From: Candidatus Delongbacteria bacterium
GTDB lineage: Bacteria > CAIWAD01
DNA length: 64,000 bases
Assembly (NCBI GenBank): GCA_963663545.1
Contig: OY760505.1
Location: forward strand, 256,001 to 320,000
Reading direction: 5' to 3'
In this document: positions 2,393 to 51,126 of the stretch, piece after piece
Numbering within the stretch: position 1 is the stretch's first letter
How the letters are laid out: each line of letters begins with the position of its first letter
Notes under the pieces: model-generated
Seen by the model: only the letters and a program-made list of their open reading frames with translations
What the model was told of the DNA's origin: nothing
Databases searched by the model: none
Position numbers and translations under genes: made by a program

Positions 2393-5017
2393 TCAGGCCC
2401 TAGGCGCCTGTGGAATATCGATGATGAACTCGGCCCCTTCGCCTGACTCAGAACGAACCTGAAGCCTTCCATTGTGGCTTTCGATCACGCTTTGCACTAC
2501 AGCGAGACCGATACCATGTCCCTCGCTGAAAAAGCTTTGGTGCTGGTGCAGAATCAACGGAAGTTGGTCCTTCTCGATGCCGATGCCGTTGTCGCGTACT
2601 ATCATGCGTACCCAGCGGTGATCCCCCTCGACAAACTCGAAAAGCTCCACTTCAATCCTACCATCTCCCTGGACAGCCTTCAGAGCATTGTCCAGCAAGT
2701 TCGTCAGCAAGGTCAGGAAGTGGTATTCATCTACCAGCGCGTAAGGCAGTTCTTCGGGGAAGCGCACGTGAAGATCCACGTGCACCTCACGCAGAAAACG
2801 GTCGCGATAGGTCTCTGAGAAGCGCGAAACGAGCTTGCCCAAATCCAAAGGCTGGGGGTGTACGACTCGCTCGCTGATCTCAAAGAACTCTTGAATGATC
2901 TGATCGATATCGCGGGCCGTATCGAGGATGCGCTGCTGCTTGTCGCGGACATACTCACACTGCGGCGGTGCCTTCTCCAGCAGAAAAATCAGACTCCCTT
3001 CGGCCATCAGTCGCAACCGCTGCAAGGGCGTCTTGAGCTTGTGAGCTACGCTCTGCGACATCACACGCCAAACATGGCGTTTGGTCCCATCCAGCTGTAG
3101 CGTGATGTCTTGAACGATCAGGATGACGCCTCCGCCCAGAGCACGACGGCGAATGGGAACCACGCGATAGAACCAGATGCGCGGTCCATCCTCGGTCACC
3201 AGCTCGACCATGCCTTCGTCTGGCTGGTCCTTGAAGAGACTGAAGCGCAACTCTTCCAGCACCGTGCCTGCAAACAGAGCATCTGCGCCACAGCGTTTAT
3301 CGAGCAGGCCAGGAACCTGACTGACAGGCGTGTTCAGCATGCGCCAGAACCTCTGATTGGCTGAATGCAGGCGTCGACGATCATCGAAGACAACGACGCC
3401 ATCGGGAGCCATGCTGAAGAGCACATCGCTGAGGGTGTGAAAAAAGCGCCAGCGCAAGGTCAAAATGAGGATGTACTGCAGAAGCAGCAGAAGTGGCAGA
3501 CTGATAAGCAGTACAGATAACCAGACGGGCAGATTCCAGGCTCGGGAAACCCGCAGGTTGAGCACTTCGTCCGTGAGATTGAGCATCCAGGCTGGCCCCT
3601 GTTCATCCTCGTAAAAGGGTAGCACCGCCTGTCCATCACTCGGACGACGAAACTGATTCTGCAACAGATGATTCGTGAGATGACTCAGCGCCAGCAATCG
3701 CAGTTTGCAATCCGCCAACACCAGATTACCCGAAGAGGTAGCCATTAGCAGGGCATCCTGCGAGCAGCGCTGGCTCTTCAGAAGCCCATGACGGTGCGGC
3801 AAACAGCCCAGCAGACGAATGGGCTCCTGCATGCTGACTTCACGTGTTACAGCGAAGTTCTCATCCAGCTGTAGGAGTCGTTGGCCATCCTCAACGGTGT
3901 AGTACCAATACTGGCCGTTGCTGGAACCGCAGCTCAACCAGTCCCAGCTTGCAGGCACATCCGCACTGCGCTCTACGCGGAGGCTGTCTGTGTTCAGCAG
4001 GTGCGCCACTGTCCAGACGCTATCGCCCTTCTGACTTGTCTGCAGCAGCAGGACCGTCTCCGGAACAGGTAATTCCATCGCCCGTGTGATACAGCCGTCA
4101 CTGTTTGTATCACCGCTCGCGATGATCTGTACTTGACCGTTATGATCAAGTTGTGTCACACTGGCATCCAGGCAGGAAGAACTCCACTTGCGCTGTTGAT
4201 GCGACTGCGTGCAGATCCATCCCTTTTCACCTATCGGAACAAGTGCCGTTAACGCTCCGGCCAGATCAACGTGCCACAATTCCTTCCAATCGCTGGCTGC
4301 CATCATGAAGAGCTTGTACTCGTTGCGATCAGAATCAAGGTTGGTCAGTTCGATGCTGTACAACAACTCCAATCCTGGACGCTCGGGGACAAGATCACCG
4401 AAATCGTGTAACACGGCATCGTAGCGCATAATGCCCGAAGTATCAGCGGGAGTGTAGAGGGTGCGCTTCGCGGAGTAATCGTAACACAGCTTGCCTCCGG
4501 CTTCCTCGCTGATGCCCACACACATGTACCCATACTCACGTCCGCCACCGTATTGCTCCGGCAGTGTGTAGCGTTTGTGATACAAGAGATAGGGAGTTTC
4601 GTGCGTGCAGTGGATCACGGTTGCGATATCCGGCCAACCGGATCCATCGCGAGAAATCACCGGAGTTGAAACGCGCTCAACAGCTTCAACCACGCGATGA
4701 AAGGGCTGTGTCAGGATCAACGAACCCATTTCTGTGAAGTGAAAGGCAATGTTGCCCCGCGAGGGACCCATCATCAGTCGCATGTAAGCGTCCACACCAT
4801 TGCTGGTGCGATGTGGAATGGCAATCAGACGACAATCGACATCACTGCGTTCACGATCGACTTCCAGCTTCCAGCGCGTCTTCCCAACCGCTTCACGCCA
4901 GGTGGAAAGCGAGTCCATAGTGTAATGGGAGACCGCGTACAGCAATACCAGGCCCAGTGCTGCCAGGCTTGCGACAATCACGAATACTGTCTTTGACCGG
5001 TATCTCAGTCCGTACAT
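2393..5017 (-). CDS. Membrane sensor histidine kinase (large extracytoplasmic domain, PAS, HisKA, HATPase)
   Basis: Two TM segments flank a ~470-aa region; H-box AHKLKTPL, N-box NLLDNALKA, G1 DNGIGI, G2 GHGIGL; adjacent to the response regulator. Confidence 0.9.
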   Translation of the reverse strand: MYGLRYRSKTVFVIVASLAALGLVLLYAVSHYTMDSLSTWREAVGKTRWKLEVDRERSDVDCRLIAIPHRTSNGVDAYMRLMMGPSRGNIAFHFTEMGSLILTQPFHRVVEAVERVSTPVISRDGSGWPDIATVIHCTHETPYLLYHKRYTLPEQYGGGREYGYMCVGISEEAGGKLCYDYSAKRTLYTPADTSGIMRYDAVLHDFGDLVPERPGLELLYSIELTNLDSDRNEYKLFMMAASDWKELWHVDLAGALTALVPIGEKGWICTQSHQQRKWSSSCLDASVTQLDHNGQVQIIASGDTNSDGCITRAMELPVPETVLLLQTSQKGDSVWTVAHLLNTDSLRVERSADVPASWDWLSCGSSNGQYWYYTVEDGQRLLQLDENFAVTREVSMQEPIRLLGCLPHRHGLLKSQRCSQDALLMATSSGNLVLADCKLRLLALSHLTNHLLQNQFRRPSDGQAVLPFYEDEQGPAWMLNLTDEVLNLRVSRAWNLPVWLSVLLISLPLLLLLQYILILTLRWRFFHTLSDVLFSMAPDGVVVFDDRRRLHSANQRFWRMLNTPVSQVPGLLDKRCGADALFAGTVLEELRFSLFKDQPDEGMVELVTEDGPRIWFYRVVPIRRRALGGGVILIVQDITLQLDGTKRHVWRVMSQSVAHKLKTPLQRLRLMAEGSLIFLLEKAPPQCEYVRDKQQRILDTARDIDQIIQEFFEISERVVHPQPLDLGKLVSRFSETYRDRFLREVHVDLHVRFPEELPYALVDEYHFLTLLTNLLDNALKAVQGDGRIEVELFEFVEGDHRWVRMIVRDNGIGIEKDQLPLILHQHQSFFSEGHGIGLAVVQSVIESHNGRLQVRSESGEGAEFIIDIPQAPRA

Positions 5018-5040
5018 ACTCTTGCCGTGGACCCCTCAGA

Positions 5041-5538
5041 CTACAGCCGCGCGAAGCCCTCCCGCATGCGGCGCCAGGAATCCAGCAGCCCCTCAGATAT
5101 GACTTTTGTCGCCGCGAGTGCAGGCATGAAATTCGTATCCCCATTCCAACGCGGAACCAGATGCCAATGCAAGTGCTGATCGATGCCAGCTCCGGCTGGA
5201 CGACCAATGTTCATGCCGATGTTGAAGCCCTGGGGGGTTATTGCGTCACGCATGATCCGCTGGGCATCCTGCAAGGTCTGCTGACATTCCAACAACTCCC
5301 CAGGAGTGAGCTGAAGAAAATCCCCTGTGTGACGGTAGGGGACAACCATCAGATGTCCGTTGTTGTACGGGTAGAGATTCATCAGCACAAAGCAATGCTC
5401 ACGGCGTGTTACAATCAGGTTCTCCTGATCCTGGCTTTCATCCTCAAGCGGCTTCCAGCAGAAAATACAGCCCTCGCGCTTGGGTTTGTCAACCTGAGTG
5501 ATGTACTGGCTGCGCCATGGCGCCCACAGGTGATCCAT
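5041..5538 (-). CDS. HIT-family hydrolase / Ap4A phosphorylase-like
   Basis: MDHLWAPWR start, CIFC, NLYPYNNGHLMVVP, HIT motif HLHWHLVPR. Confidence 0.92.
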   Translation of the reverse strand: MDHLWAPWRSQYITQVDKPKREGCIFCWKPLEDESQDQENLIVTRREHCFVLMNLYPYNNGHLMVVPYRHTGDFLQLTPGELLECQQTLQDAQRIMRDAITPQGFNIGMNIGRPAGAGIDQHLHWHLVPRWNGDTNFMPALAATKVISEGLLDSWRRMREGFARL

Positions 5539-6259: not shown

Positions 6260-9136
6260 TTATTTCCGCCAGAAATTATCACAGGCGCGCAGAAGCTCGC
6301 GTTCCTGGTAAAAGACCTTCGACGGCGCGCCAATACTGCCTGTAAACTGCTCGCCGTAGCGTTTTTGTATGACGCGTTTGTCCAGCAGTAGAAAGATGCC
6401 GCGATCTTGCTCGTGGCGAATCAGTCGGCCGCTGCCCTGACGAAAACGTATCACGGCTTCAGGCACACTGTACTCCATGAAGCTGTTGCGACCGCTGCGA
6501 TCCAGCGCCTCCATGCGCGCGGCTACCATCGGCTCGCTGGGGACGGCGAAAGGCAACTTGGTCATGACCAGTAGCTGAAGCGCATCACCGGGCACATCCA
6601 CGCCTTCCCAGAAGGAATCGGTACCCAGCAGAATCGCGTTGCCCGCCTCGCGGAAGCGGCGCAGGATCTCATGACGCGGACCGTCCATGCCTTGCGCCAA
6701 CAGAGGCGTCTGCCGGTAATCCAGCCGCGCAAGGAGCTCCTCGTAGGTGCGGTTGAGCAAGCCGTAGCTGGTAAACAGCACCAGAGTTCCCTTTTGGAAA
6801 GAGGTCGCCAGCTCACCCAGCAGCTCCGCCAGCTGAGCCGCGTAGGCCCAGGCATTTTTGCCACTGGGCTCAGGCAGCCAGTTGGGAATGAAAAAGCGCA
6901 GTTGCCGCTCCAGGTCAAAGGGGCTGCCGTAGACGCGACACTCTACGGGACGCTCCTGCTGATTCAGACCGGTGCTGCCCAGGAAATAGTCGAAGCTGCC
7001 GTCCACGGCGAGGGTGGCGCTCACCAGCAGAAGCGAGCTGAGACGCGAATAAAGCTTGGCGGCGAGTTGACGCCCCAGGTCCAGCGGACAACGGAAGAAG
7101 GTAGTCTCGTAGCTGACCGGGTGCACCTCGTACCAGCAAACCTCGTCAGCGCCTTCGTAGGCAGCCAACTCGTTTTCGAGAGTGCAAGCCTCCAGCACCT
7201 GACCGCCCAGACTGTGGAACTCGCCCTCGACCTCCGGATGCGCATCGCGGAAATCGGCAGGCAACTCCTCCAGCAGACGCGTGGTTTGCTCTATGGCGCG
7301 CTTGAGCCGCGGCAGGTACTGGTCCAGTTCCTGTTGCAGCGCGTAATACATGCGCAGCGGGTTTTCCTCGGGCGTGTAGCGTTGCTTCTGGGTGAAGCGC
7401 GTGCGTGCAATCTGCTCAGCCCAGCGCTCACGTTGTCCCTCAATCAATTGCTCGCGCAGGCTGCTTAGCGGCTCATCGTAGGCGGCCAGCGCTTCGGCGC
7501 ACTCCTCCAGGCTGTGTATCACCGTATCACGCGTTGCGCCTTCCGGCAAGCCCGTCAGCAGACGACTGCGCAGTTGACGAAGCAGACCACGTCCGTCACC
7601 AGGACTGTAGAGCGCGCGAGTGCGGTTCTGCAGCATGCCGAAACTGAAGCCCTTGCGCAGATGCCTCTCGGCGCAAGCCTGCAGATTGTGCGCCTCGTCC
7701 AGCACCAGGCACGAATACTCGCCCAGCACACGGCCTTCGACCTCCAGATCCGAAAGCACCAGGCTGTGATTCACCACCAGCAGGTGCGCATCGGCTGCCT
7801 GGCGGCGTGCGCGATTGACAAAACAACGCTCGCTGGCCCGGCATCGCGGGTTGGCGCAATGTTGGCTCTCGCTGCGCAGCTGCGCCCACAGAGCGGGCGC
7901 GTTGCGATAATGGAAGCCGACACACTCTTCCACATCACCCGTGCGTGTCTGCGCCAGCCAGACCACTAGCGGTAGCAGTTTCAGCCGATCCTTGACGCTC
8001 AGACGGTCCTGGGCCTCCTCCAGCAGACGTTGCCAGCGCTGGCCGCAGATGTAATTGCCGCGCCCCTTCAGCAATACCGCCTTCAGCGGACCGCGTAACA
8101 GGCGTCCCAGGCGTGGAATGTCCTCGCGAAAGAGCTGATCCTGCAAATTGCGTGTGTGTGTGGAAATCACAACTCCGCGCTCGCCCTGTGATACAAGCTC
8201 GCGTCCGCGCAGAATGGCGGGCACCAGATACGCAAAGGATTTGCCAGTACCCGTAGCGGCTTCGGCAGCCAGGAATCCCGGCGTTGCCTGCCAGCCCAGC
8301 GTGCGCGCCGCCTCCCGGGCCAACTCGACTTGAGCCGGGCGCAGCGTGAAACCGGGAAGAGCTTCCTGCAACAGGCCTGTATCACCGAACCAGTCGTCCA
8401 TTGAAGCGGAGTCTTCTCCCTCCAAGTCCGCCTTGTGATACACGTTACCCGTCGTCTCGGGCAGAAAGCGGGCAAAGTCCTCCGGACCGCCGTGCTGACG
8501 ATAGACTTCGTAAGCGCCAGCGCAAAGAGTCTCGAGCACATCGCCTGTAGCACGCGTCAGAATCACCAGCTCGCGCAATTGCACCAGCGGAAGTCCGCGT
8601 AACACGCGCAGCAAATGCAGAAGCAGCTCGGCAGTGGCGGCTGCATCGTCGCCAGCGCGATGCGCCTTGTCCAGGTTGATATCAAACCAACCGGCCAGTT
8701 CCGACAGACGATGATTGCTTACCGTCGGCAATAGTGTCTGCGCCAGCGGAACCGTGTCGACGGCCAGCAGCGGCGCTTCATAGGCCAACCCTAGCCGCTT
8801 GCACCAGCGCGTCAGCATGCCCAGGTCAAAGGCGATGTTGTGGGCCACAACTGGCGCTTCACCCAGGAAATCCAGAAAGTCGGGCAGGACTTCTTCGATG
8901 CGTCGTGCATCACGCACCATGCCAGGCTTGATACCCGTTAGTTTCGTGATACGCGGCGGAATGGCCGTCTGCGGATGAACCAGCTGATTGAAGCGCGCCT
9001 CTTCTTCGCCGTTGCGGTAACGCACCGCGCCGATCTCGATGATTTCGCAGTCGTCATCAAGCCCGGTGGTCTCCAGGTCGAAGCAGACAAAGGTGGACAG
9101 TCCAGTGGCGGCCAGCAGCTCGCGCAGTTCCCTCAT
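6260..9136 (-). CDS. dinG: 3'-5' exonuclease (DEDDh) fused to a DinG-family helicase
   Basis: N-terminal FDLETTG / AHNIAFD / HRAGDDA; Walker A AEAATGTGKS, Fe-S cysteines, DEAH, FWEGVDVPG, QGSGRLIR. Confidence 0.92.
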   Translation of the reverse strand: MRELRELLAATGLSTFVCFDLETTGLDDDCEIIEIGAVRYRNGEEEARFNQLVHPQTAIPPRITKLTGIKPGMVRDARRIEEVLPDFLDFLGEAPVVAHNIAFDLGMLTRWCKRLGLAYEAPLLAVDTVPLAQTLLPTVSNHRLSELAGWFDINLDKAHRAGDDAAATAELLLHLLRVLRGLPLVQLRELVILTRATGDVLETLCAGAYEVYRQHGGPEDFARFLPETTGNVYHKADLEGEDSASMDDWFGDTGLLQEALPGFTLRPAQVELAREAARTLGWQATPGFLAAEAATGTGKSFAYLVPAILRGRELVSQGERGVVISTHTRNLQDQLFREDIPRLGRLLRGPLKAVLLKGRGNYICGQRWQRLLEEAQDRLSVKDRLKLLPLVVWLAQTRTGDVEECVGFHYRNAPALWAQLRSESQHCANPRCRASERCFVNRARRQAADAHLLVVNHSLVLSDLEVEGRVLGEYSCLVLDEAHNLQACAERHLRKGFSFGMLQNRTRALYSPGDGRGLLRQLRSRLLTGLPEGATRDTVIHSLEECAEALAAYDEPLSSLREQLIEGQRERWAEQIARTRFTQKQRYTPEENPLRMYYALQQELDQYLPRLKRAIEQTTRLLEELPADFRDAHPEVEGEFHSLGGQVLEACTLENELAAYEGADEVCWYEVHPVSYETTFFRCPLDLGRQLAAKLYSRLSSLLLVSATLAVDGSFDYFLGSTGLNQQERPVECRVYGSPFDLERQLRFFIPNWLPEPSGKNAWAYAAQLAELLGELATSFQKGTLVLFTSYGLLNRTYEELLARLDYRQTPLLAQGMDGPRHEILRRFREAGNAILLGTDSFWEGVDVPGDALQLLVMTKLPFAVPSEPMVAARMEALDRSGRNSFMEYSVPEAVIRFRQGSGRLIRHEQDRGIFLLLDKRVIQKRYGEQFTGSIGAPSKVFYQERELLRACDNFWRK

Positions 9137-15085: not shown

Positions 15086-17699
<2,614 letters not shown>

Positions 17700-17811: not shown

Positions 17812-17842
17812 TATCGCTACCGGTATCGGTATCGGGATCGAC
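17812..17842. repeat. (ATCGGT)n-type hexamer tract
   Basis: ttatcgctaccggtatcggtatcgggatcg; same family at about 21282, 29601, 29772, 49780 and 62729. Confidence 0.7.
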
Positions 17843-18008
17843 TCCAAGGGTGTCGGACCGTGATTCCAAGCTAGCGCAGCCTCAGACAGTGAAATCAGGA
17901 GTGGGATGTATCACAGCATGATCGTGATACACGACAAATGGGACGTGCAATGAAGAGCTGGAAAGTAGGTGCGGCGTGATTCCTGCACCCAGTCCAAATC
18001 TGTAATAC

Positions 18009-18069: not shown

Positions 18070-18972
18070 CTAACGCACCAGCACCATCTTGCGGGTCTCC
18101 GTCAGCCGACCCGACTGCAGGCGGTAGAAATAGGTACCGCTGGGCAGGTTGGCCGCGTCGAAGGACACCGTGTGCTGCCCGCTCTCCATCAAACCGTTCG
18201 CCAGCGTGCTCACCAACGAACCATTCAGGTTGTAGACCTTCAGCTGAGTCATCTCGGTCTCGGGCAAGCTGAAGCTGATGGCGGTAGTGGGGTTGAAGGG
18301 GTTCGGATAGTTCTGGCTCAGGCCAAAGCTACCAGCGACCGGATCGGCGGAGGCTACTGGAGGTGCAGCAGGTAGGCCCTCGAGGGTGACGCTGTAGGCG
18401 ATCTCGTCGGGGAAATCGGTACCGTAGCCGAAGAGACCCAGCAGCAGCCAGTACTGACCGGCATTCAGGGTGATATCGTAGCTAACGATGCCGTCGATTG
18501 ACTCGTACTCAGAGCTCAAGTCGTAGCCCGGAACTGAACAGTCCAAAGTACCCACGCTGTTGCCATAAACGGTAGCGTAGAATGGGATCACGGTTTCCGT
18601 CTCGGCGTAGACGGTCAGCGTGGTGGTTTCGGTCAAAGTGATCTCGTACCAGTCCAGGTCGCGGAAGTTGTTGCCACTACTGGTAACGTAGGTGAACAAG
18701 GTGCCACAGATGTGGGCGTATGCCGGCTGTGCCATGTAAGGAATGGAGTTGCATGCGCCGTTTTGATCCGCGACTGGATCACTGTGCGGAGGCAGGTTTT
18801 CCAGGAAGGCGCCGTCGCAGCTCAGATCACGCGGTCCAGGAATGCAAGCCGCCGTCGGGGCGGGCGTGTAACCAGCCGGAGCCTGTACAGCGGAGGTTGA
18901 AGAAGCGAGGTTGGCGTTGGCGTTTAGTGAGAGGGCACAGGCCAGACAAGTGACGATGAGCATACGGTTCAT
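18070..18972 (-). CDS. Secreted protein with C-terminal T9SS/FlgD-Ig-type sorting domain
   Basis: Signal peptide MNRMLIVTCLACALSLNANA; DLDWY pre-peptidase-like motif; C-terminal FGLSQNYPNPFNPTT...SGTYFYRL...KMVLVR. Confidence 0.85.
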   Translation of the reverse strand: MNRMLIVTCLACALSLNANANLASSTSAVQAPAGYTPAPTAACIPGPRDLSCDGAFLENLPPHSDPVADQNGACNSIPYMAQPAYAHICGTLFTYVTSSGNNFRDLDWYEITLTETTTLTVYAETETVIPFYATVYGNSVGTLDCSVPGYDLSSEYESIDGIVSYDITLNAGQYWLLLGLFGYGTDFPDEIAYSVTLEGLPAAPPVASADPVAGSFGLSQNYPNPFNPTTAISFSLPETEMTQLKVYNLNGSLVSTLANGLMESGQHTVSFDAANLPSGTYFYRLQSGRLTETRKMVLVR

Positions 18973-19249
18973 TCTAAATCCTTCCTTCTCCCCCAGGGGC
19001 CGCCTGAGGTATGTTTGATGTTGCATTGCCAATTCGCCAGCCGCAGTGGCAAAGGGTGTGCCACGAATTTCAATCACCGGATATTACACTATTTAGGCCC
19101 ATTCTTTACTCGTGCCGAGTCGCAATTTTGCCCGATTTTGAACACTTCCAAGCATACTGACAGATTTCCTGTATAAAACCCCGCCGTTGGGCGGGGGCTC
19201 TGGAAGCTTAATTGATTGGCTAGTGGACCGATTCGCGTTGAGGGCGAGC

Positions 19250-20006
19250 TTATTTAAGTAGCATCACCTTCTGGATTGCACTTTCATGCGGCGTGCTCAC
19301 TTTGATCAAGTATAAACCGCTGGCAAGATCTGCGGCTGAGAAAGCGTACTGGTTCTCGCCGGCAGTGCACTCCTCGTCCAGCAGCAGCCGTACACGCTGT
19401 CCGCACAGATTAAAGACCTCAAGACGCGTGCGGGCCGATGCGGGCTGCGCCCAGCGCACAAGGGTCGTTGGATTGAAAGGATTAGGATAGTTGTCGTGTA
19501 ACACCAGCGACCCGGGTATCACGGCCTGTTCCTTCACTCCCGAGGAAGTCAGGCCCAGCGCGGTCGATAAATAGTCGACGGCGCTCTCCGGCGTGTACTA
19601 GTGCAGCGAGAGAGCCGTGATACGACACTCGAAGGGCTCGTCGACCCACACTCCGGCAACGCGGCCATTGTTGTCGTCGCTGGTCTGCCAGACGCAGGCC
19701 TCGTAGCCCTCTTGCAGATAGTCCTCAGCCATGGGAGCTAAAGCGATGACCAGTGAATCGGGATTCTGGGCAGCCACCAGCTCTTCGTCTATCACCAGAT
19801 TCGTTCCAGAGGGTGAGTGTGTCCCACCCGCGCGGATGCCTCTCAGAAGCTCCGTGAGGAGACCATACTCGGTGGGAGTCTCGTACACGAGCATTACCGG
19901 CTCCCCGGCTCCCAACTCCAAGTAGTCCATCCCAGGAATGCTGCCGGGCAAACACCCCTGTCCCGTCACCAGCACGCGTCCGCCAATGCGTGTGATGGGA
20001 TTGAGC
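19250..20006 (-). pseudogene. 5'-truncated secreted-protein gene with an in-frame TAG and a C-terminal sorting domain
   Basis: ORFs 19598..20014 and 19250..19537 are in the same frame and separated only by TAG at 19598-19600 (…RITALSLH*YTPESAVDYL…NYPNPFNP…KVMLLK). The 5' end abuts the tandem array. Confidence 0.75.
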
Positions 20007-20996: not shown

Positions 20997-21004
20997 GTTT
21001 GTCA

Positions 21005-33626: not shown

Positions 33627-34352
33627 TCAGAAAAGATCGCCAACAGCACTGGAGCCATTGGCCGTTTCGTCGCCCGTCTCATCCGGTTCTATGATTTCAG
33701 CCACGGAGGCCATCTCAACCTCCTGGTCGTCGATGATCAACAATGCCAGACCCTCACTGAAATGCACTGCGGTTACTTCGCCGCGCAACATGGCACGAAT
33801 CTCTACTTCCTCACCGGCTGAATCCTCAGCGGAGATCTCGATGGTGTAGGTGCCATCGGGAAGCTGCGTACCCGCGCTATCCTTGCCATCCCAAGAGACC
33901 GTGCCATCTCCATTGGGCTCCGTTGTGAAGCTCGCAAGCTGCGCACCCAGCGAATCCAGCACCTTCACCGTTACCTCAGATGGCTCCACCAACGCTTCAT
34001 AGGAAAGGGTGGCTTCGCCATCACGCAGCAAAATGCCATCGTGCACGGCAACCACTTCCTTACCGATCAAACCTGTGGCCATCTCGCTCTGAACGGAGCT
34101 AGCTAGAACCGTGGTCATCTCGATCTGGGTTTCCATCTGATCGTTCAGGTTTTCCATCTGCTCAAGGGAGGAGAATTGGGCGAGCTGCGCGGCGAACTCT
34201 TGTGACTCAAGTGGATTCAGCGGATCCTGATTCTGCAGCTGCACGACAAGCAATTGCAGGAAGTCGTCCTTGCTCATCACGGAGTTGTCACTGACGACGG
34301 ACGAGGCGTCGTAGGTGTAGGTGTTACTACTGATCGCGGTGATGTCACTCAT
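33627..34352 (-). CDS. flgD: Hook cap FlgD
   Basis: FLQLLVVQLQNQDPLNP, QLAQFSSLEQ, WDGKD. Confidence 0.95.
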   Translation of the reverse strand: MSDITAISSNTYTYDASSVVSDNSVMSKDDFLQLLVVQLQNQDPLNPLESQEFAAQLAQFSSLEQMENLNDQMETQIEMTTVLASSVQSEMATGLIGKEVVAVHDGILLRDGEATLSYEALVEPSEVTVKVLDSLGAQLASFTTEPNGDGTVSWDGKDSAGTQLPDGTYTIEISAEDSAGEEVEIRAMLRGEVTAVHFSEGLALLIIDDQEVEMASVAEIIEPDETGDETANGSSAVGDLF

Positions 34353-37300
34353 CTCAATGTCTCCTCACCAAAGGCGGCCATTTCCGATGCGAAATCCGCA
34401 TCGCCCTGTTTCACGCCGACCTCTTCAGGCCGACTCTGACCCTGCTCCTGACCGGATTGCGATCCGGTCTGCTGCCGCCTGGCACTCTCATCCTGCACCG
34501 CCAGCTCCACCTGATCCAGCCGAATGCCGGATCGCTGCAACTGCTCGCGCAGTTCGTTCAACCCCTCGCGCACTGTGTCACGTCCCGCGTGACTCTCAGC
34601 AATCACACGCAGACTTACTTCGCCCTGCTGTTCACTCAACTGCAGCCGAATTCTGCCTAGCTGGGCGGGATTCAACTCCATCAGGGCTTCGCGACGACCG
34701 CTGTACTGCATCAGCCGCATGCGCGCCGATAGGCGCTCCATGTTGGCTATCACCTGTCGACGCTGTTCCGCGCTTTCTTCCGTGGACAGTGAGCGGCTGT
34801 CCATTGTCTGCGCAGTACCTTGCCCGTCGCTGCTGTCAAAGCGCACACGCTGAAGTCCGCTTGTGGAAGCATTCCAGACCACTTTTGTCACGTCTGCAAC
34901 CGGCATCTCCGCAGCCTGCCGTTTCACGCTTGGCAAATCCCGCGCCTGTTTCTGCGAATTGTCTTCCTGTTGCTGTCTCTCGGCGTCTGTTGCGCCAAAA
35001 ACGCGATCCATTTCGCGGCGCAAACGGCTGCCTTCTCCCTGGCTGAGTACACTGTCACGCTCGTTCTGTGTCACAGATGTATCACGGGAATTCGCTTTAA
35101 CTCCGCCGTCTCCACTGTCCAAGCGGTTTCCAAAGCTCGTCGTCTGAAGCGAGTTCACAACTCCCGCCATCTCAGCGCTGCGCATCATTCCCTCGCGGCT
35201 GACCGCAATCAGCACATCCATGTCCTGCAACAAAGCGCTGATGGGACGCTGGCTAATTTGTGCGGACTGAGTTGGTGTCGGTTCAGGAGCTGCAACTAGG
35301 GAAGTTGCGGACTTCTGAAGGGAAAGCTCTTCCGACATTGTTGCAGGCCTTGTGGCGCTTTCTGCCCCTTCTACTTCCTCGGCACTGCGTGCTATATCCA
35401 GCTCGGGCACGGTCCACTCCGTATGTGCAGTGGAGCGATTGCCGGTTTGATTCGCCCAGCGCACAGCGTCAGGCCTAAGCTCATCGTGGATTAGCGATGA
35501 GGTAGCGGTCTGTGTCCCCACGGATGACTGGAACTCATCGGGATTCCCTGTCGCTTTCACGGAAGTAGAATCGTCAGAGGGACTGTCTTGCGCCTGTGTC
35601 ATTTGCTGAGGCTCAGACGGCGTCGCGCTCTGAGATTGCGGCTCAATCGGCAGGGTCGTTGGCTCCGCGACGATCCGTGTCACGGGCGTAGGAGCTGACT
35701 CCATATCAGCAATGGCCTGTGTCTGTGGCGGTGTCACAGTCTGCGGCTGCAGTTCAGTCGGCACGGTCGTTGGATCAGCGGCAACTCGTGTCACAGGCGT
35801 GGAAGTCGATTCGCCAGGCACGCTTGCCTGTGCCTGCGGCTCAATCTGCGATTGCGTGGCGTGTTGCGGCGCAGAGTGAATTGCCTGTTGCGGCTCCGTC
35901 GGCACGACCAACGGCTCAGCGGCAACTCGTGTCACGGGCGTGGAAGTCGAATCGCCAGATGCACCTGCCTGAACCTGCTGCGCGATCTGCGATTGCGCGG
36001 CTTGTTGCGGCGCAGATTGAGTTGCGTGTTGCGGCTCCGTCGGCACGGTTGTTGGATCAGCGGCAACTCGTGTCACGGGCGCGGCTGTCGATTCCGCAGA
36101 TACACTGGCCTGTGCCTGCGGCGCAATCTGCGATTGCGCGGCTTGTTGCGGCGCAGATTGAGTTGCGTGTTGCGGCTCCGTCGGCACGGTTGTTGGATCA
36201 GCGGCAACTCGTGTCACGGGCGCGGCTGTCGATTCCGCAGATACACTGGCCTGTGCCTGCGGCGCAATCTGGGATTGCGTGGATTGTTGCGGCGCAGAGT
36301 GAGTTGCCTGCTGCGGCTCCGTCGGCACGGCCAAAGGCTCAGCGGCAACTCGTGTCACGAGCGCGGCTGTAGAGTCGCCTGACACACTTGTCTGTGCCTG
36401 CGGCACGATCTGCGATTGCGCGGCTTGTTGCGGCGCAGACTGAGTTGCCTGCTGCGGCTGCGTCGGCGCGGCCACCGGTTCAACGGCAACTCGTGTCACG
36501 AGCGCGGCTGTAGAGTCGCCTGACACACTTGTCTGTGCCTGCGGCACGATCTGCGATTGCGCGGCTTGTTGTGGCGCAGAGTGAGTTGCCTGCTGCGGCT
36601 CCGTCGGCACGGCCATCGGCTCAACGCCAACTCGTGTCACGGGCGTGGAAGTCGACTCGCCAGATGCACCAGCCTGAACATGCTGCACGATCTTCGATTG
36701 CGCGGCTTGTTGCGGCGCAGACTGAGTTGCCTGCTGCGGCTGCGTCGGCGCGGCCACCGGTTCAACGGCAACTCGTGTCACGAGCGCGGCTGTAGAGTCG
36801 CCTGACACACTTGTCTGTGCCTGCGGCACGATCTGCGATTGCGCGGCTTGTTGTGGCGCAGAGTGAGTTGCCTGCTGCGGCTCCGTCGGCACGGCCATCG
36901 GCTCAACGCCAACTCGTGTCACGGGCGTGGAAGTCGACTCGCCAGATGCACCAGCCTGAACATGCTGCACGATCTTCGATTGCGCGGCTTGTTGCGGCGC
37001 AGAGTGGGTTGCCTGCTGCGGATCAGTCGAAACGACCGATGGCTCGACGGCTACTCGTGTCACGGACACGGCTGTCGATTCGCCAGACACGTTTGCCTGG
37101 TCCTGCTGCGCGATCTGCGATTGCGCGGTTTGTTGCGGCGCAGATTGAGTTGCCTGTTGCGGCTGCGTCGGCGCGGCCACCGGTTCAACGGCAACTCGTG
37201 TCACGAGCGCGGCTGTAGAGTCGCCTGACACACTTGTCTGTGCCTGCGGCTCGATCTGGGATTGCGCGGCGTGTTGCGGCGCAGAGTGAGTTGCCTGTTG

Positions 37301-40300
37301 CGGCTCCGTCTGCACGGCCAACGGCTCAGCGGCAACTCGTGTCACGGGCGCGGAAGTCGATTCGCCAGGCACGCGTGCTTGAACCTGCGGCTCGATCTGC
37401 GACTGCGCGGCGTGTGGCGGCGCAGAGTGAATTGCCTGTTGCGGCTCCGTCGAAACGACCGTTGACTCAACGACGACTCGTGTCACGGGCGCAGCAGTCG
37501 ATTCGCCAGGCACGCTTGCTTGAACCTGCTGCGCGATCTGCGATTGCGCGGCTTGTTGCGGCGCAGAGTGAGGTGCCTGTTGCGGCTCAGTTGGCACGCC
37601 CAAAGGTTCAACGGCTGCTCGTGTCACGGGCGCAGCAGTCGATTCGCCAGGCACGCTTGCCTGGGCCTGCGGCTCAATCTTCGATTGCGTGGATTGTTGC
37701 GGCGCAGAGTGAGTTGCCTGTTGCGGCTCCGTCGAAACAACCGTTGACTCAGCGACAACTCGTGTCACAGGCGCAGCAGTCGATTCGCCAGACACACTAG
37801 ACTGAACCTGCTGTGCGATCTGCGATTGCGCGGCTTGCTGCGGCGCAGAGTGAATTGCCTGCTGCGACTCCGTCGGCGAGGCCAACGGCTCAGCGCCAAC
37901 TCGTGTCACGGGCGTGGAAGTCGACTCGCCAGATGCACCAGCCAGAACATGCTGCGTGATCTGCGATTTCGTGGCGTGTTGCGGCGCAGAGTGGGTGGCC
38001 TGTTGCGGCTCCGTCGGCGCGGCCATCGGCTCAGCGTTAACTCGTGTCACGGGCGCAGAAGTCGATTCGCCAGATGCACCAGCCAGAACATGCTGCGTGA
38101 TCTGCGATTTCGTGGCGTGTTGCGGCGCAGAGTGGGTGGCCTGTTGCGGCTCCGTCGGCGCGGCCATCGGCTCAGCGTTAACTCGTGTCACGGGCGCAGA
38201 AGTCGATTCGCCAGGCACGCTTGCTTGAACCTGCTGCGCGATCTGCGATTGCGCGGCTTGTTGCGGCGCAGAGTGAGTTGCCTGCTGCGGCTCCGTCGAA
38301 ACGACCGTTGACTCAACGACGACTCGTGTCACGGGCGCAGCAGTCGATTCGCCAGGCACGCTTGCTTGAACCTGCTGCGCGATCTGGGATTGCGCGGCTT
38401 GTTGCGGCGCAGAGTGAGGTGCCTGTTGCGGCTCAGTTGGCACGCCCAAAGGTTCAACGGCTGCTCGTGTCACGGGCGCAGCAGTCGATTCGCCAGGCAC
38501 GCTTGCTTGAACCTGCTGCGCGATCTGGGATTGCGTGGCGTGTTGCGGCTCTGTCGGCGAGACCAACGGCTCGGCGGCAACTCGTGTCATAGGCACAGCA
38601 GTCGATTCGCCAGGCACGTGTGCTTGAACCTGCGGCTCGATCTGCGACTGCGCAGCGTGTTGCGGCGCAGAGTGGGTGGCCTGTTGCGGCTCCGTCGGCG
38701 CAGCCATCGGCTCAACGGCAACTCGTGTCAAGGGCGCAGAAGCAGACTCGGAAGGCACGCTTGCTTGAACCTGCTGCGTGATCTGCGATTGCGTGGCGTG
38801 TTGCGGCGCAGAGTGGGTGGCCTGTTGCGGCTCCGTCGGCACGGTCGTTGGATCAGCGGCAACTCGTGTCACAGGCATTGAAGTCGATTCGCCTGACACG
38901 CTTGCCCGTACCTGCGGCGCGATCTTCGATTGCGCGGCTTGTTGCGGCGCAGAGTGAGTTGCCTGCAGCGGCTCCGTCGGCACGGCCAAAGGCTCAGCGG
39001 CACCTCGTGTCACGGGCACGGCAGTCGAATCGCCAGATGCACCTGCCTGAACCTGTTGCGCGATCTTCGATTGCGCGGCTTGTTGCGGCGCAGAGTGAAT
39101 TGCCTGTTGCGGCTCTGTCGGCACGACCAACGGTTCAGCGACTACTCGTGTCACGGGCGTTGAAGTCGATTCGCCAGACATGCTTGCCTGGGCCTGCGGC
39201 TCAATCTGCGATTGCGCAGCGTGTTGCGGTGCAGAGTGAGGTGCCTGTTGCGGCTCCGTCGGCACGGCCATCGGCTCAGCGGCAACTCGTGTCACAGGCG
39301 CAGCAGTCGATTCGCCAGGCACGCTTGCCTGGGCCTGCTGCGCGATCTGCGATTGCGCGGCTTGTTGCGGCGCAGAGTGAGGTGCCTGCTGAGGCTCCGT
39401 TGGCGCGGCCAACGGTTCAGCGGCAACTCGTGTCACGGGCGCAGAAGCAGACTCGGAAGGCACGCTTGCCTGGGCCTGCGGCTCAATCTTCGATTGCGTG
39501 GCGTGTTGCGGCGCAGAGTGGGTTGCCTGTTGCGGCTCCGTCGACACGGCCAAAGGTTCAACGGCAACTCGTGTCACAGGCGCAGCAGTCGATTCGCCAG
39601 ACACGCTTGCCTGGGCCTGCGGCTCAATCTTCGATTGCGTGGATTGTTGCGGCGCAGAGTGAGTTGCCTGCAGCGGCTCCGACAGCACGGCCACCGGTTC
39701 GGTGGCAACTCGTGTCACGGGCGCAGAAGTCGATTCGCCAGGCACGCTTGCTTGAACCTGCTGCACGATCTTCGATTGCGCAGCTAGTTGCGGCGTAGGT
39801 TGGGTTGCCTGCTGCGGCTCCGTCGGCGCGACCAAAGGTTCAACGGCAACTCCAGTCACGGGCGCGGAAGTCGACTCGCCAGATGCACCAGCCTGAACAT
39901 GCTGCATGATCTTCGATTGCGTGGCGTTTTGCGGCGCAGAGTGAGTTGCCTGCAGCGGCTCAGTTGGCACGGCCAACGGTTCAACGGCAACTCGTGTCAC
40001 GGGCGCAGAAGCAGACTCGGAAGGCACGCTTGCTTGAACCTGCTGCGCGATCTGCGATTGCGTGGCGTGTTGCGGCGCAGAGTGGGTTGCCTGTTGCGGC
40101 TCCGTCGGCGCAGCCATCGGCTCAACGGCAACTCGTGTCACGGGCGAGGCTGTCGACTCGCCAGAAGCACCAGCCTGAACATGCTGCACGATCTTCGATT
40201 GCGCAGCTAGTTGCGGCGTAGGTTGGGTTGCCTGTTGCGGCTCCGTCGGCACGGCCATCGGCTCAGCGCCAACTCGTGTCACGGGCGCGGCAGTCGATAC

Positions 40301-42436
40301 GGCAGACACACTGGCCTGTGCCTGCGGCTCGATCTGCGATTGCGTGGCTTGCTGCGGCGCAGACTGTGTTGCCTGCTGCGGCTCCGTCGGCACGGCCAAT
40401 GGCTCAACGGCACCTCGTGTCACGGACGCGGCTGTCGATTCGCCAGATGCACCAGCCTGAACATGCTGCACGATCTTCGATTGCGCAGCTAGTTGCGGCG
40501 CAGAGTGGGTTGCCTGCTGCGGCTCCGTCGGCACGGCCAATGGCTCAACGGCACCTCGTGTCACGGACGCGGCTGTCGATTCGCCAGACACGTTTGCCTG
40601 GTCCTGCTGCGCGATCTGCGATTGCGCGGCTTGTTGCGGCGTAGGTTGGGTTGCCTGCTGCGGCTCCGTCGGCACGGTCGTTGGATCAGCGGCAACTCGT
40701 GTCACAGGCATTGAAGTCGATTCGCCTGACACGCTTGTCTGGGCCTGGGTCTCGATCTGCGATTGCGTGGCGTTTTGCGGCGCAGAGTGAGTTGCCTGTT
40801 GCGGCTCCGTCGGCGCAGCCAACGGCTCAGCGGCACCTCGTGTCACAGACGCGGCTGTCGATTCGGCAGACACGCTTGCCTGGTCCTGCTGCGCGATCTG
40901 CGATTGCGCGGCTTGTTGCGGCGTAGGTTGGGTTGCCTGCTGCGGCTCCGTCGGCACGGTCGTTGGATCAGCGGCAACTCGTGTCACAGGCATTGAAGTC
41001 GATTCGGCAGACACACTGGCCTGTGCCTGCGGCTCGATCTGCGACTGCATGGATTGCTGCGGCGCAGAGTGAATTGCCTGCTGCGACTCCGTCGGCGAGG
41101 ACAACGGCTCAGCGCCAACTCGTGTCACGGGCGTGGAAGTCGACTCGCCAGATGCACCAGCCTGAACATGCTGCACGATCTTCGATTGCGCAGCTTGTTG
41201 CGGCGTAGATTGGGTCGCCTGCTGCGGCTCCGTCGGCACGGTCGTTGGATCAGCGGCAACTCGTGTCACGGGCGCAGTGGCAGACTCACTAGAGGCGACG
41301 GCCTGTGTCTGTGTCTGTGTCGTTGCTCGCGGTTGCGGCGCAGGCTGCGCACTAGCAGTCGCGATCTCCTGTCTTGCCATTTGCGGCATCGCAACTGCAT
41401 CTGGCCGACTTGTTGAACGGGAAGCAGAATCGCCGTCAAGCTGTGACACGTGCGTTGGCGAAGTTTCTGCAGCCCCAGCCCGCACGGCAGGATTCACAGG
41501 CTCCCGCGAGATCGTGGTCGACTCTTTCGTAAAGACATCGCTTGTCCGATAGCGAATCTGCGCGCTACGCTCGCGCTGCCAGTCCTCCAACGCATCGGCC
41601 TCGTCCTGGAGCTGTTTGAAAGCAAGCACGCCCGATTCTTCGTCAGCGGAAGAGGCTTCGGTCTCGGCACTGGAGTGTGTCACAGCTTCTGCAGGCGATT
41701 CGCTTGTCCTCGGGACATCTGCACTTGTCTGCAGCGTATCACCGGCTTGCGACCGGTCCTGCCGGGTCAAGGTCTGAGCAAGACTCTGCTTCTGAGTCTG
41801 CTGCTGTGCCAACGGTTCCGTCTTCAGCAGCTGCACTTCAGGCCGTGCTTCTGCTGTAGCACGTGGCAGGTTCACGGGAGCTGCATCACCGCGCTGGTAT
41901 TCGTCCGGAGCAGCAACACCACTCATCGAGTCGTTGGCAGCTTCCTCGCCGGTCTTTTTGGCTAGGACGTCAACGCCCTCAGTCGCAGGGCGCGAAGTGG
42001 TGTTTGAGGAGACACTCCACAGCAGTGTGCCTGCCGCATCGGACGATGGTTCCTGCAGCAACTCATGGCTAGGCTCGGATTCATCTTCGCTACCGAAAGA
42101 TGGTGCGAGGGAAGCGTCGACAGCCTTTCGTGACACGGGCTCATCCTGAATCAGCCACTCCTCCAGTAGTTCGCTGGCGCGTGATACGCCGACCGCCGGT
42201 CGTTGCGTGATCAACTGAGAAGTCTGCTCAGGCAGGCTCGAGTTTTTTGTCTTCTCTGCCGATTGATACTGCGCCAGCGCAGCAGCAAAGCTCGTGGCTT
42301 TCCCGCCCTCCTGACTGCGCAGTTCGGCAAGCAGCTGCTCCAACTGGCGACCGGGTGACGCAGAGACGCCTGTACCGGCTTGTTCGCCGGTAGCAAAAAA
42401 GAAGAAACTGCTCTGCGAGTCGACCCTGCCCTGCAT
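34349..42436 (-). CDS. fliK: Flagellar hook-length control protein FliK, giant, with a central 47-aa repeat
   Basis: Lies just upstream of flgD; C-terminal Flg_hook domain (LNPAQLGRIRLQL…LNELREQLQRSGI); ATG after AGGAG; uninterrupted frame. Confidence 0.88.
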   Translation of the reverse strand: MQGRVDSQSSFFFFATGEQAGTGVSASPGRQLEQLLAELRSQEGGKATSFAAALAQYQSAEKTKNSSLPEQTSQLITQRPAVGVSRASELLEEWLIQDEPVSRKAVDASLAPSFGSEDESEPSHELLQEPSSDAAGTLLWSVSSNTTSRPATEGVDVLAKKTGEEAANDSMSGVAAPDEYQRGDAAPVNLPRATAEARPEVQLLKTEPLAQQQTQKQSLAQTLTRQDRSQAGDTLQTSADVPRTSESPAEAVTHSSAETEASSADEESGVLAFKQLQDEADALEDWQRERSAQIRYRTSDVFTKESTTISREPVNPAVRAGAAETSPTHVSQLDGDSASRSTSRPDAVAMPQMARQEIATASAQPAPQPRATTQTQTQAVASSESATAPVTRVAADPTTVPTEPQQATQSTPQQAAQSKIVQHVQAGASGESTSTPVTRVGAEPLSSPTESQQAIHSAPQQSMQSQIEPQAQASVSAESTSMPVTRVAADPTTVPTEPQQATQPTPQQAAQSQIAQQDQASVSAESTAASVTRGAAEPLAAPTEPQQATHSAPQNATQSQIETQAQTSVSGESTSMPVTRVAADPTTVPTEPQQATQPTPQQAAQSQIAQQDQANVSGESTAASVTRGAVEPLAVPTEPQQATHSAPQLAAQSKIVQHVQAGASGESTAASVTRGAVEPLAVPTEPQQATQSAPQQATQSQIEPQAQASVSAVSTAAPVTRVGAEPMAVPTEPQQATQPTPQLAAQSKIVQHVQAGASGESTASPVTRVAVEPMAAPTEPQQATHSAPQHATQSQIAQQVQASVPSESASAPVTRVAVEPLAVPTEPLQATHSAPQNATQSKIMQHVQAGASGESTSAPVTGVAVEPLVAPTEPQQATQPTPQLAAQSKIVQQVQASVPGESTSAPVTRVATEPVAVLSEPLQATHSAPQQSTQSKIEPQAQASVSGESTAAPVTRVAVEPLAVSTEPQQATHSAPQHATQSKIEPQAQASVPSESASAPVTRVAAEPLAAPTEPQQAPHSAPQQAAQSQIAQQAQASVPGESTAAPVTRVAAEPMAVPTEPQQAPHSAPQHAAQSQIEPQAQASMSGESTSTPVTRVVAEPLVVPTEPQQAIHSAPQQAAQSKIAQQVQAGASGDSTAVPVTRGAAEPLAVPTEPLQATHSAPQQAAQSKIAPQVRASVSGESTSMPVTRVAADPTTVPTEPQQATHSAPQHATQSQITQQVQASVPSESASAPLTRVAVEPMAAPTEPQQATHSAPQHAAQSQIEPQVQAHVPGESTAVPMTRVAAEPLVSPTEPQHATQSQIAQQVQASVPGESTAAPVTRAAVEPLGVPTEPQQAPHSAPQQAAQSQIAQQVQASVPGESTAAPVTRVVVESTVVSTEPQQATHSAPQQAAQSQIAQQVQASVPGESTSAPVTRVNAEPMAAPTEPQQATHSAPQHATKSQITQHVLAGASGESTSAPVTRVNAEPMAAPTEPQQATHSAPQHATKSQITQHVLAGASGESTSTPVTRVGAEPLASPTESQQAIHSAPQQAAQSQIAQQVQSSVSGESTAAPVTRVVAESTVVSTEPQQATHSAPQQSTQSKIEPQAQASVPGESTAAPVTRAAVEPLGVPTEPQQAPHSAPQQAAQSQIAQQVQASVPGESTAAPVTRVVVESTVVSTEPQQAIHSAPPHAAQSQIEPQVQARVPGESTSAPVTRVAAEPLAVQTEPQQATHSAPQHAAQSQIEPQAQTSVSGDSTAALVTRVAVEPVAAPTQPQQATQSAPQQTAQSQIAQQDQANVSGESTAVSVTRVAVEPSVVSTDPQQATHSAPQQAAQSKIVQHVQAGASGESTSTPVTRVGVEPMAVPTEPQQATHSAPQQAAQSQIVPQAQTSVSGDSTAALVTRVAVEPVAAPTQPQQATQSAPQQAAQSKIVQHVQAGASGESTSTPVTRVGVEPMAVPTEPQQATHSAPQQAAQSQIVPQAQTSVSGDSTAALVTRVAVEPVAAPTQPQQATQSAPQQAAQSQIVPQAQTSVSGDSTAALVTRVAAEPLAVPTEPQQATHSAPQQSTQSQIAPQAQASVSAESTAAPVTRVAADPTTVPTEPQHATQSAPQQAAQSQIAPQAQASVSAESTAAPVTRVAADPTTVPTEPQHATQSAPQQAAQSQIAQQVQAGASGDSTSTPVTRVAAEPLVVPTEPQQAIHSAPQHATQSQIEPQAQASVPGESTSTPVTRVAADPTTVPTELQPQTVTPPQTQAIADMESAPTPVTRIVAEPTTLPIEPQSQSATPSEPQQMTQAQDSPSDDSTSVKATGNPDEFQSSVGTQTATSSLIHDELRPDAVRWANQTGNRSTAHTEWTVPELDIARSAEEVEGAESATRPATMSEELSLQKSATSLVAAPEPTPTQSAQISQRPISALLQDMDVLIAVSREGMMRSAEMAGVVNSLQTTSFGNRLDSGDGGVKANSRDTSVTQNERDSVLSQGEGSRLRREMDRVFGATDAERQQQEDNSQKQARDLPSVKRQAAEMPVADVTKVVWNASTSGLQRVRFDSSDGQGTAQTMDSRSLSTEESAEQRRQVIANMERLSARMRLMQYSGRREALMELNPAQLGRIRLQLSEQQGEVSLRVIAESHAGRDTVREGLNELREQLQRSGIRLDQVELAVQDESARRQQTGSQSGQEQGQSRPEEVGVKQGDADFASEMAAFGEETLR
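35720..41330 (-). repeat. ~40 tandem 141-bp (47-aa) repeats inside fliK
   Basis: Unit of type PVTRVAAEPLAVPTEPQQATHSAPQQAAQSQIAQQVQASVPGESTAA; one shortened 39-aa unit; copy number estimated as span/141. Confidence 0.95.
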
Positions 42437-42445
42437 GGGCAACTC

Positions 42446-49151: not shown

Positions 49152-49167
49152 TCTCTACACCTTGTGA

Positions 49168-49654: not shown

Positions 49655-49669
49655 GCAATTCCTGTGCCA
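49655..49669 (-). promoter_or_regulatory. Sigma54 promoter of the flgB operon
   Basis: Minus strand TGGCAC-AGGAA-TTGC, a perfect -24/-12 consensus ~60 nt upstream of flgB. Confidence 0.85.
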
Positions 49670-49730
49670 TGTAGCTAAGGCTAGGAGAATTCTGGTGTAA
49701 GTTCCGGAATGCAGAACTTCAGGAGTGGTG

Positions 49731-51126
49731 GATAGGGGGGCGTGCTTGCCCCCCTATGGAATTTGTTTCCCCCCGCTCAAATCGGTATCGGTGCCGACCC
49801 TGCGGGTCGGATCGCTATCGGTATCGAGGCATTGCCGTGCAGCCAGCCGTATGTATCCTATGGACGAAGGCGTGCTACTCTGTGGAACGACGCTGACAGC
49901 TGAGTTCATTTGCACGACTTCGTCGAGGTCACGTGCGCAGCGCGTGACACGCCTAGCGGCGGGGCTCTCGTCTGCGACGCAGCGAAAGAGCACCGCCGAC
50001 GCGGTGCAGGACCTACTTTTCTTTGTCGCAACAAAGAAAAGTAGGGCAAAAGAAAATGCTCGGGCTCTCCGACCCGAGGACGCTTGTCCGCTGGACAACC
50101 GCCGCGGGCGGGTACCATATGCTTGCAGCAGGGCTACGCTCATGTGTTCACACCTTCGGTGTTCACTTATGGCCTTACGGCCATTTGGGTGTGTCTGCTA
50201 TAGGGATGAGTGGCTGTATGGTTGAAGAATCGGGGCCGATTCTTCAGCCTCTTCTGACGGGAAGCCCAGTGTACACTATGGACGAAGACCCGCAATTTAG
50301 CGGAGTTGCAAATACGGTCGCACGAGATGCGGGGCTTCGTCGAGGTGCTGACCGCATAGCGGGCAGCACACCTGTATGGCTGAAGAATCGGCAGCCGATT
50401 CTTCGGCTTCTCTTCGACAGGAAGCCATTGTACACTGTGGGCGAAGACGTGCAGTTTCGTAGCGATGAGATTGCAGCAATTCATGATGCACGGGTTCGCC
50501 GAGGTGTTTTGCGAAGCAAAACACACGCGGGCGGGCACCATTTGATGGCTGAGGGGCTACGCTCATGTGTTCACAACGTAGGGCAGAATTCGCAAAGCGG
50601 ATTCTGCGAGCGACTTGACCCGAAGCAAAGCTAAGGGGCAAGTCGACGTTCACCTCTGGCCTAACGGCCATCTGGGTGAGCTGGCTTAGGGGTAGAGTGG
50701 CTGTATGGCTGAAGAATCGGCAGCCGATTCTTCGCCTTCTCTTCGACAGGAAGCCATTGTACACTGTGGGCGAAGACGTGCAGTTTCGTAGCGATGAGAT
50801 TGCAGCAATTCATGATGCACTGGTTCGCCGAGGTGTTTTGCGAAGCAAAACACACGCGGGCGGGTACCATTTATTGGCTTCTGGGCTACGCTCATTTGTT
50901 CACACCTTCGGTGTTCACTCTTGGCCTAACGGCCATCTGGGTGAGCTGGCTTAGGGGTAGAGTGGCTGTATGGCTGAAGAATCGGCAGCCGATTCTTCGG
51001 CTTCTCTTCGACAGCAATCATTGAAGGCCAGGAGGAGATTTCTCGCGAATTCGCAGAGCGGCGCAAGCGGCTCAAACTGAATGCGAGGAATCTCCGAGGT
51101 GTCGAGCACGTCGTGCTCGACACACG
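49731..51126. repeat. Left mosaic hairpin element (non-coding, with internal direct repeats)
   Basis: Hairpins gaagaatcggcagccgattcttc, gtgttttgcgaagcaaaacac, gcagaattcgcaaagcggattctgc, tactttctttg-type; ~200-bp duplication (about 50373 and 50700) and ~90-bp duplication (about 50657 and 50922). Confidence 0.85.

Follow-up and report, generated by a model that had tools for sequence, protein, structure and literature searches.

A 64-kb window with resident DNA and a low-GC island

The DNA analysed here is a 64-kb stretch of contig OY760505.1 (the window), to which all site counts and densities below refer. Judged by Pfam matches among the 71 open reading frames (ORFs) scanned, almost all genuine genes run on the minus strand, among them genes for a sigma-54 response regulator, a histidine kinase, a DinG-like helicase, GcvPA/PB/H, AccB/C, EF-P, the DNA ligase LigA, an iron ATP-binding cassette transporter and a long flagellar cluster. 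A short word, the 7-mer GTGATAC with its extended form YGTGAYACR (Y, pyrimidine; R, purine), runs through the resident (core) DNA at 4086-49950 at about 1.2 sites per kb (52 of the 55 GTGATAC and 53 of the 54 YGTGAYACR sites outside tandem arrays), and it is a DNA-level signal rather than a by-product of codons or peptides. A low-GC (49%) island at 50001-62200, carrying PIN, SIR2-like and Mrr-like genes, holds the other three GTGATAC and the one other YGTGAYACR.

Among 120 LigA homologs returned by the search, the nearest is 72% identical and all others reach at most 54%, the named matches in the latter class coming from metagenome-assembled genomes of Calditrichaeota, Gemmatimonadetes and Melioribacteraceae. 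The same DNA of about 60% GC that holds the full flagellar cluster also encodes a protein with a type IX secretion system C-terminal sorting domain (Por_Secre_tail; 18070-19077, minus strand). From the sorting domain and the LigA identities we infer that the host, placed loosely, is a poorly sampled deep lineage of the Fibrobacteres-Chlorobi-Bacteroidetes group.

GTGATAC is the most over-represented 7-mer of the window

An earlier note on this DNA, made by eye, had put the number of GTGATAC/GTATCAC sites at about 50; an exact count gives 55, of which 30 lie on the plus and 25 on the minus strand. Dinucleotide-preserving shuffles yield 3.33 ± 1.85 (maximum 8; 0 of 100 reach 55), and a third-order Markov model (Markov-3), applied after masking of the two tandem arrays at 35600-41400 and 20002-21183, predicts 8.2, which makes GTGATAC the most over-represented 7-mer (z 16) at a fold enrichment between 6.7 (Markov-3) and 17.8 (Markov-1). 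Nineteen of the 20 coordinates given in that note are exact, the site listed at 8187 being off by one (8188). The 6-mers GTGATA (74 sites) and TGATAC (66 sites) are raised only because of GTGATAC, within which 55 of each sit.

GTGATAC or GTGACAC ranks first among 7-mers in each of three separate core sub-regions (z 8.5-11.4), whereas four unrelated control loci (distant loci from the LigA search of genome contigs, 39-41% LigA identity) hold 2, 1, 2 and 3 GTGATAC sites, with no 7-mer above a z of 6.3. These four loci and the depleted island are the basis on which the word might be called lineage-specific. The literature covered, which did not extend to subscription journals and supplements, did not contain GTGATAC/GTATCAC as an iterated genomic word, and work on new uptake sequences or over-represented words in other phyla likewise yielded nothing on it; matches to the string in methylome papers were taken as incidental, none of those listed concerning such a word by title and abstract.

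The full word is the 9-mer YGTGAYACR

Around the 55 GTGATAC sites only positions -2 (A 3, C 27, G 10, T 15), -1 (A 0, C 25, G 15, T 15) and +1 (A 31, C 4, G 15, T 5) differ from background. GTGACAC outside the array described below (n=20) has R at +1 in 20/20 and Y at -1 in 19/20 cases, and because of this common flank signature it belongs to the same family as GTGATAC, which justifies the degenerate form GTGAYAC proposed in the earlier note. The core of that heptamer stands and its extent does not: the full word is the 9-mer YGTGAYACR, with GTGATAC as its dominant form, and two further variants, GTGTTAC (13 versus 3.0, Markov-3) and GTGCTAC (11 versus 5.6), are mildly raised too, whereas GTGGTAC is absent (0 versus 4.4). 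Outside the tandem arrays we counted 54 YGTGAYACR sites, 27 per strand (35 YGTGATACR and 19 YGTGACACR), against 2.9 (Markov-1) or 3.6 (Markov-3) expected, an enrichment of 15- to 18-fold. GTGAYAC with other flanks occurs at about its expectation, except with G at -1 (RGTGAYACR, 12 versus 3.9). The family is near-dyad symmetric (YGTG-A-YACR), but GTGATAC is not its own reverse complement, and a degenerate palindrome is seen only in the less common form, YGTGACACR (19 sites).

GTGACAC occurs 59 times in the window, 39 of them in an array of 141-bp tandem repeats at 35600-41400 (minus strand) within the FliK-like ORF, with one GTGACAC and no GTGATAC per unit. The earlier note had remarked on many GTGACAC sites, with one in nearly every FliK repeat; the 39 in the array were amplified with the 141-bp repeat and cannot count as independent sites. 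Outside the array GTGACAC is found 20 times versus 6.1 expected, and genic GTGACAC numbers 12 versus 5.7 ± 2.3 under a synonymous shuffle (3 of 200 reach 12) or 7.8 ± 2.2 when dinucleotides are also kept (10 of 200).

An apparent depletion of variants at positions 1 and 2 was not borne out by codon shuffles, which showed no clear depletion save for GCGATAC (2 versus 5.8) and GTGGTAC (0 versus 4.6); sub-words of the word itself probably push up the Markov expectation for these variants. The whole window has 351 GATC, one GTATAC (a palindrome; raw count) and no GTGGTAC, and the scarcity of the last two may reflect restriction-site avoidance.

The word is drawn into genes against codon and amino-acid preference

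For protein-preserving shuffles we used 37 Pfam-supported minus-strand genes (36,456 bases), a set that omits the FliK-like ORF, the small ORFs and the genes of the island. These genes hold 42 GTGATAC sites, compared to 6.96 ± 2.29 (maximum 14) when synonymous codons are shuffled within genes, leaving proteins and dipeptides unchanged, and 13.44 ± 2.70 (maximum 22) when dinucleotides are kept as well; in neither case did any of 300 shuffles reach 42. A codon- and dipeptide-preserving shuffle had been named beforehand as the test that could overturn the enrichment, which survives it. The 37 YGTGAYACR sites in these genes likewise compare with 5.5 ± 2.2 (synonymous) or 9.9 ± 2.0 (dinucleotides also kept).

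GTGATAC is spread about evenly over the five stop-free frames (sense 8 and 9; antisense 8, 11 and 6), a mild shortage on the sense strand arising because the third sense frame would read TGA. Rare codons are drawn into it, with 8 of 25 ATA, 8 of 47 TCA and 8 of 82 GTA codons lying inside the word. Synonymous choice produces GTGATAC in 42 of the 71 peptide contexts able to encode it (59%), and such peptides are themselves in excess, 71 versus 46.6 ± 6.4 when amino-acid order is shuffled (0 of 300 reach 71). These results uphold what the earlier note had said of both strands, several frames and A/T-ending codons, and the shuffles, rare codons, saturation and peptide excess together support its proposal of a signal at the level of DNA. 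A motif acting in RNA or peptide was rejected, given the strand symmetry, the five frames and the sites between genes.

The gene for the DinG-like helicase/exonuclease (6260-9136, minus strand) has seven GTGATAC (2.4 per kb), two of which, at 7516 and 7524, form a direct pair, and the gene for the NAD-dependent DNA ligase LigA (15086-17182, minus strand) holds four GTGATAC and two YGTGACACR. Together the two genes have 11 of the 42 genic GTGATAC versus 5.7 expected, in a comparison made post hoc (binomial p 0.02). At three of the four GTGATAC sites in LigA the word spells Val-Ser-Arg, and does so with GTA-TCA, two rare codons. Residues were compared in 100 of the 120 returned homologs, at too few sites for statistics: one site lies at a very variable position (the window's Val in 2% and Ser in 3% of homologs), and two lie at a better conserved Val-Ser-Arg (Arg in 99%, Ser in 67-79%, Val in 36-79%).

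Resident DNA carries the word on both strands and the island carries little of it

GTGATAC occurs at 1.05-1.21 sites per kb in core DNA. The 37 genes together with the FliK-like ORF contain 45 of the 55 sites, and of the 52 sites in the core at least 45 lie in ORFs. Spacing in the core is approximately exponential (coefficient of variation 0.99; Kolmogorov-Smirnov p 0.94), in a window too short for periods of 10-90 kb. Strand bias, a check that the earlier note had named, was examined within the window and is absent, both for GTGATAC (30/25, binomial p 0.59) and for YGTGAYACR (27/27). A near-steady fall of cumulative GC skew over the length of the window, together with the placement of all 37 Pfam-supported genes on the same strand, suggests that the window belongs to a single replichore.

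The density of GTGATAC falls to 0.25 per kb in the island, where the three sites compare with 0.9-1.2 expected at its lower GC, which shifts the expectation, and where a single island is concerned; 1 of the 54 YGTGAYACR sites is found there. About three sites had been noted earlier in what was described as a 10-kb cassette array, and the number agrees with the three in 50001-62200; we looked for an integron-type cassette array as such in this region and recognised none. Island genes encode PIN, beta-helix, SAM-methyltransferase/ARMT1-like, SIR2-like and Mrr-like proteins. The ORF at 55245-57305, the only one in the window with a methyltransferase domain, matches generic S-adenosylmethionine (SAM)-dependent methyltransferase families.

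Repeats flank the island. On one side, at 50.1-51.1 kb (50084-51103), a unit of about 265-330 bp stands in about three direct copies; on the other, at 62.0-62.4 kb (62005-62420), there is an inverted copy, with arms of 196-220 nt that are 88-89% complementary. Each repeat unit holds one GAAGAATCGGCAGCCGATTCTTC hairpin.

Comparison with uptake sequences and iterated palindromes

DNA uptake sequences (DUS) of Neisseriaceae, as well as the uptake signal sequences (USS) of Pasteurellaceae, enhance uptake and transformation by way of a specific receptor and the competence machinery, and form dialects among related species. YGTGAYACR is like them in being a word in the 9- to 12-bp class that occurs about once per kb, on both strands and in several frames within genes, and is unlike them in its unrelated sequence, its other lineage and its near-palindromic form. 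Findlay and Redfield (PMC2817400) count 1,471, 765 and 1,892 uptake sequences per genome, place 65%, 49% and 34.5% of USS/DUS in ORFs (here at least 45 of 52 sites in the core), and describe uptake sequences as accumulating after transfer, which the sparse island matches. They also report that USS/DUS about double the frequencies of the tripeptides that they encode, a likeness to the peptide excess found here (71 versus 46.6 ± 6.4); accumulation against codon preference is shared as well. In the same paper USS/DUS are absent from genes without homologs in relatives, as the word is scarce here in apparently acquired DNA (one island, 0.25 per kb, whose lower GC alters the expectation), and sit at poorly conserved residues, as does one LigA site here, two others being better conserved. 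According to the 2025 preprint 10.1101/2025.10.24.684340, DUS/USS are biased to genome-maintenance genes, with about half in terminators; the DinG-like and LigA genes may show such a bias, in the post hoc comparison given above.

Highly iterated palindrome 1 (HIP1) of cyanobacteria is a perfect palindrome with a cognate orphan DNA methyltransferase, conserved at orthologous sites and spaced with periods of 10-90 kb. The present word differs from it in that the dominant GTGATAC is not a true palindrome, in length (7-9 versus 8 bases) and in having no GATC. HIP1 (GCGATCGC) and alternate HIPs resemble it in occurring about once per gene, independently of frame, with no evident role in RNA or peptide and with dyad-like symmetry; the 15- to 18-fold enrichment of YGTGAYACR also falls in the 15- to 300-fold range that PMC5861425 gives for HIP1, which is apparently under selection there. 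HIP1 is tied to methyltransferases in PMC4390886 and, long without an assigned function, has recently been linked to transformation, as stated in bioRxiv 10.1101/2024.09.10.611283 and PMC13756078.

A self-DNA tag as a tentative reading

The anatomy shared with DUS, USS and HIP1 leads us to read the word as a self-DNA tag: with a probability of about 0.4, and by analogy, YGTGAYACR would be a 'self' word of the DUS/USS/HIP1 kind, hyper-iterated in the resident chromosome. The density of YGTGAYACR and GTGATAC, about 1.2 per kb, is within the range of known uptake sequences. A protein of a DNA-uptake or recombination route would recognise YGTGAYACR in duplex DNA in either orientation, and the near-dyad YGTG-A-YACR hints that its reader is symmetric and may be dimeric. 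Fragments with the word would be preferentially taken up or recombined; word-creating mutations would therefore spread through molecular drive, perhaps aided by selection, until most protein-tolerated positions were filled, and freshly acquired DNA would begin without the word. Both the protein reader and the route, uptake or recombination, we infer from the analogy with known systems.

Sequence-specific recognition of self DNA during uptake is not known to be established outside Neisseriaceae and Pasteurellaceae, and the neisserial DUS receptor is the pilin ComP. It is a doubtful though conceivable further step that YGTGAYACR is the first iterated sequence of the uptake or self-recognition type in a lineage that branches deeply within the Fibrobacteres-Chlorobi-Bacteroidetes group, with a symmetric receptor unlike ComP, about 60% of the protein-allowed positions filled and proteins reshaped in the process. 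Were the self-DNA tag real, an independent and equally saturated word in an unrelated, poorly studied lineage would mean that such words arise repeatedly, and would offer a new system in which to ask whether drive or selection maintains genome-wide words; adding the word to DNA constructs might help the genetic tractability of the organism, and its density could mark foreign DNA in the host genome.

Several observations weigh against the self-DNA tag. No competence gene or pilin was found among the 71 window ORFs scanned, nor did any of them have a Pfam match to a DNA methyltransferase family, and so nothing in this set links the word to uptake. Known DUS and USS are asymmetric, unlike the near-palindromic YGTGAYACR, and a word of this form suits uptake no better than it suits a methyltransferase or a DNA-binding protein that acts as a dimer. 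Coding and non-coding DNA do not differ in GTGATAC density (1.15 per kb in the 37 genes; 7 sites in 5,496 non-genic bases), and with 7 of 52 core sites non-genic there is no counterpart to the terminator concentration that the preprint cited above describes for DUS/USS. Inverted GTGATAC pairs, with predicted stems of about 9-10 bp, do occur in the histidine-kinase gene (4086-4113, sites at 4086 and 4107; predicted hairpin of -22 kcal/mol, z -4.2), in intergenic DNA (17908-17930, sites at 17908 and 17924; 9-bp stem in the centroid fold) and between the stop codon of flgD and the start codon of flgE (33587-33612, sites at 33587 and 33606; 10-bp stem). None of the three is followed by a T-run, canonical T-run terminators being present elsewhere in this organism, and the excess of pairs at most 30 bp apart is not significant (4 versus 1.75 expected, P 0.10), so that a terminator role for the inverted pairs was rejected.

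Other readings of the word

The word might instead be a HIP1-like one linked to an orphan DNA methyltransferase. Biased mismatch repair that depends on methylation would then create and keep it, or else selection on chromosome structure or repair signals, and it would play no part in uptake; we regard this reading as possible but, on balance, improbable. The reading accords with the near-dyad family and its degenerate palindrome YGTGACACR, with the equal density in coding and non-coding DNA, with an enrichment inside the HIP1 range (PMC5861425) and with the concentration of one-base variants at positions 4 and 5, which HIP1 shows likewise at other positions according to Elhai (PMC4390886). The same reading is at odds with the non-palindromic dominant form and with a window that has no DNA methyltransferase, its lone methyltransferase-domain ORF being generic and located in the island; moreover, sites are randomly spaced over the 64 kb, a length too small to reveal periods of 10-90 kb. 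A simple C-to-T deamination model fails as well: descent of GTGATAC from a methylated GTGWCAC parent was rejected, the T form numbering 55 and the C form 20, with a sum far above the roughly 14 expected jointly. We consider it unlikely that selection keeps the word as a binding site for an abundant dimeric protein, nucleoid-associated or chromosome-organising, that binds DNA sequence-specifically; the GT-N3-AC shape with its near-dyad and symmetric Y/R flanks, the equal strands (27/27) and the presence of sites throughout all core regions tested would fit such a protein, but seven invariant bases, 59% saturation and a cost in amino acids far exceed what nucleoid proteins are known to demand, and intergenic or promoter DNA is not preferred.

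Polar signals such as Chi, FtsK-orienting polar sequences (KOPS) and architecture imparting sequences (AIMS) show strong strand skew relative to replication, and the density and fold enrichment of Chi are lower than those of the present word. These octamers share with it only the character of short words over-represented in core DNA, and a polar recombination or segregation signal, for which a short 7- to 9-mer dense in core genes could speak, is made very improbable by the lack of orientation bias (30/25, 27/27) despite a near-steady GC skew and genes on one strand. We give almost no credence to the remaining reading, in which there is no signal and the word is a codon or dipeptide by-product or a fragment of some longer dispersed repeat, such as a repetitive extragenic palindromic (REP) element or miniature inverted-repeat transposable element (MITE). 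Nothing beyond the raw count speaks for it, protein-preserving shuffles stay far below the observed counts, and flank information ends at -2 and +1 around sites that occupy five frames and also lie between genes. REP and MITE elements have a longer conserved unit and are mainly intergenic; this candidate was rejected since only three flank positions are off background and 45 of 55 sites fall inside the 37 genes or within the FliK-like ORF.

Other repeats of the window

The 141-bp repeats form part of the giant FliK-like ORF of 2697 amino acids (34349-42442, minus strand), which lies between flgD and fliJ, where fliK would be expected; it contains about 39 tandem units (141 bp, 47 amino acids) of 81-84% identity. 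A second array, at 20002-20996, has a 165-bp unit in 5.8 tandem copies and closes with a complete tRNA-Gly(CCC) gene (20924-20996). Every unit contains a copy or diverged copy of the first 37 or so nucleotides of this tRNA (the 5' half to the anticodon), followed by unrelated sequence, and an exact copy of the 37 nt stands at 20594. A 98-bp repeat in 1.8 copies (21005-21183) follows this array.

Intergenic hexamer microsatellites of the type (CGATAC)n/(GTATCG)n are found at 17824-17845, 21280-21312, 29770-29810, 49816-49830 and 62770-62790. They have GATAC in common with the main word, and ATACCGATA occurs 12 times in the window versus 0.2 expected.

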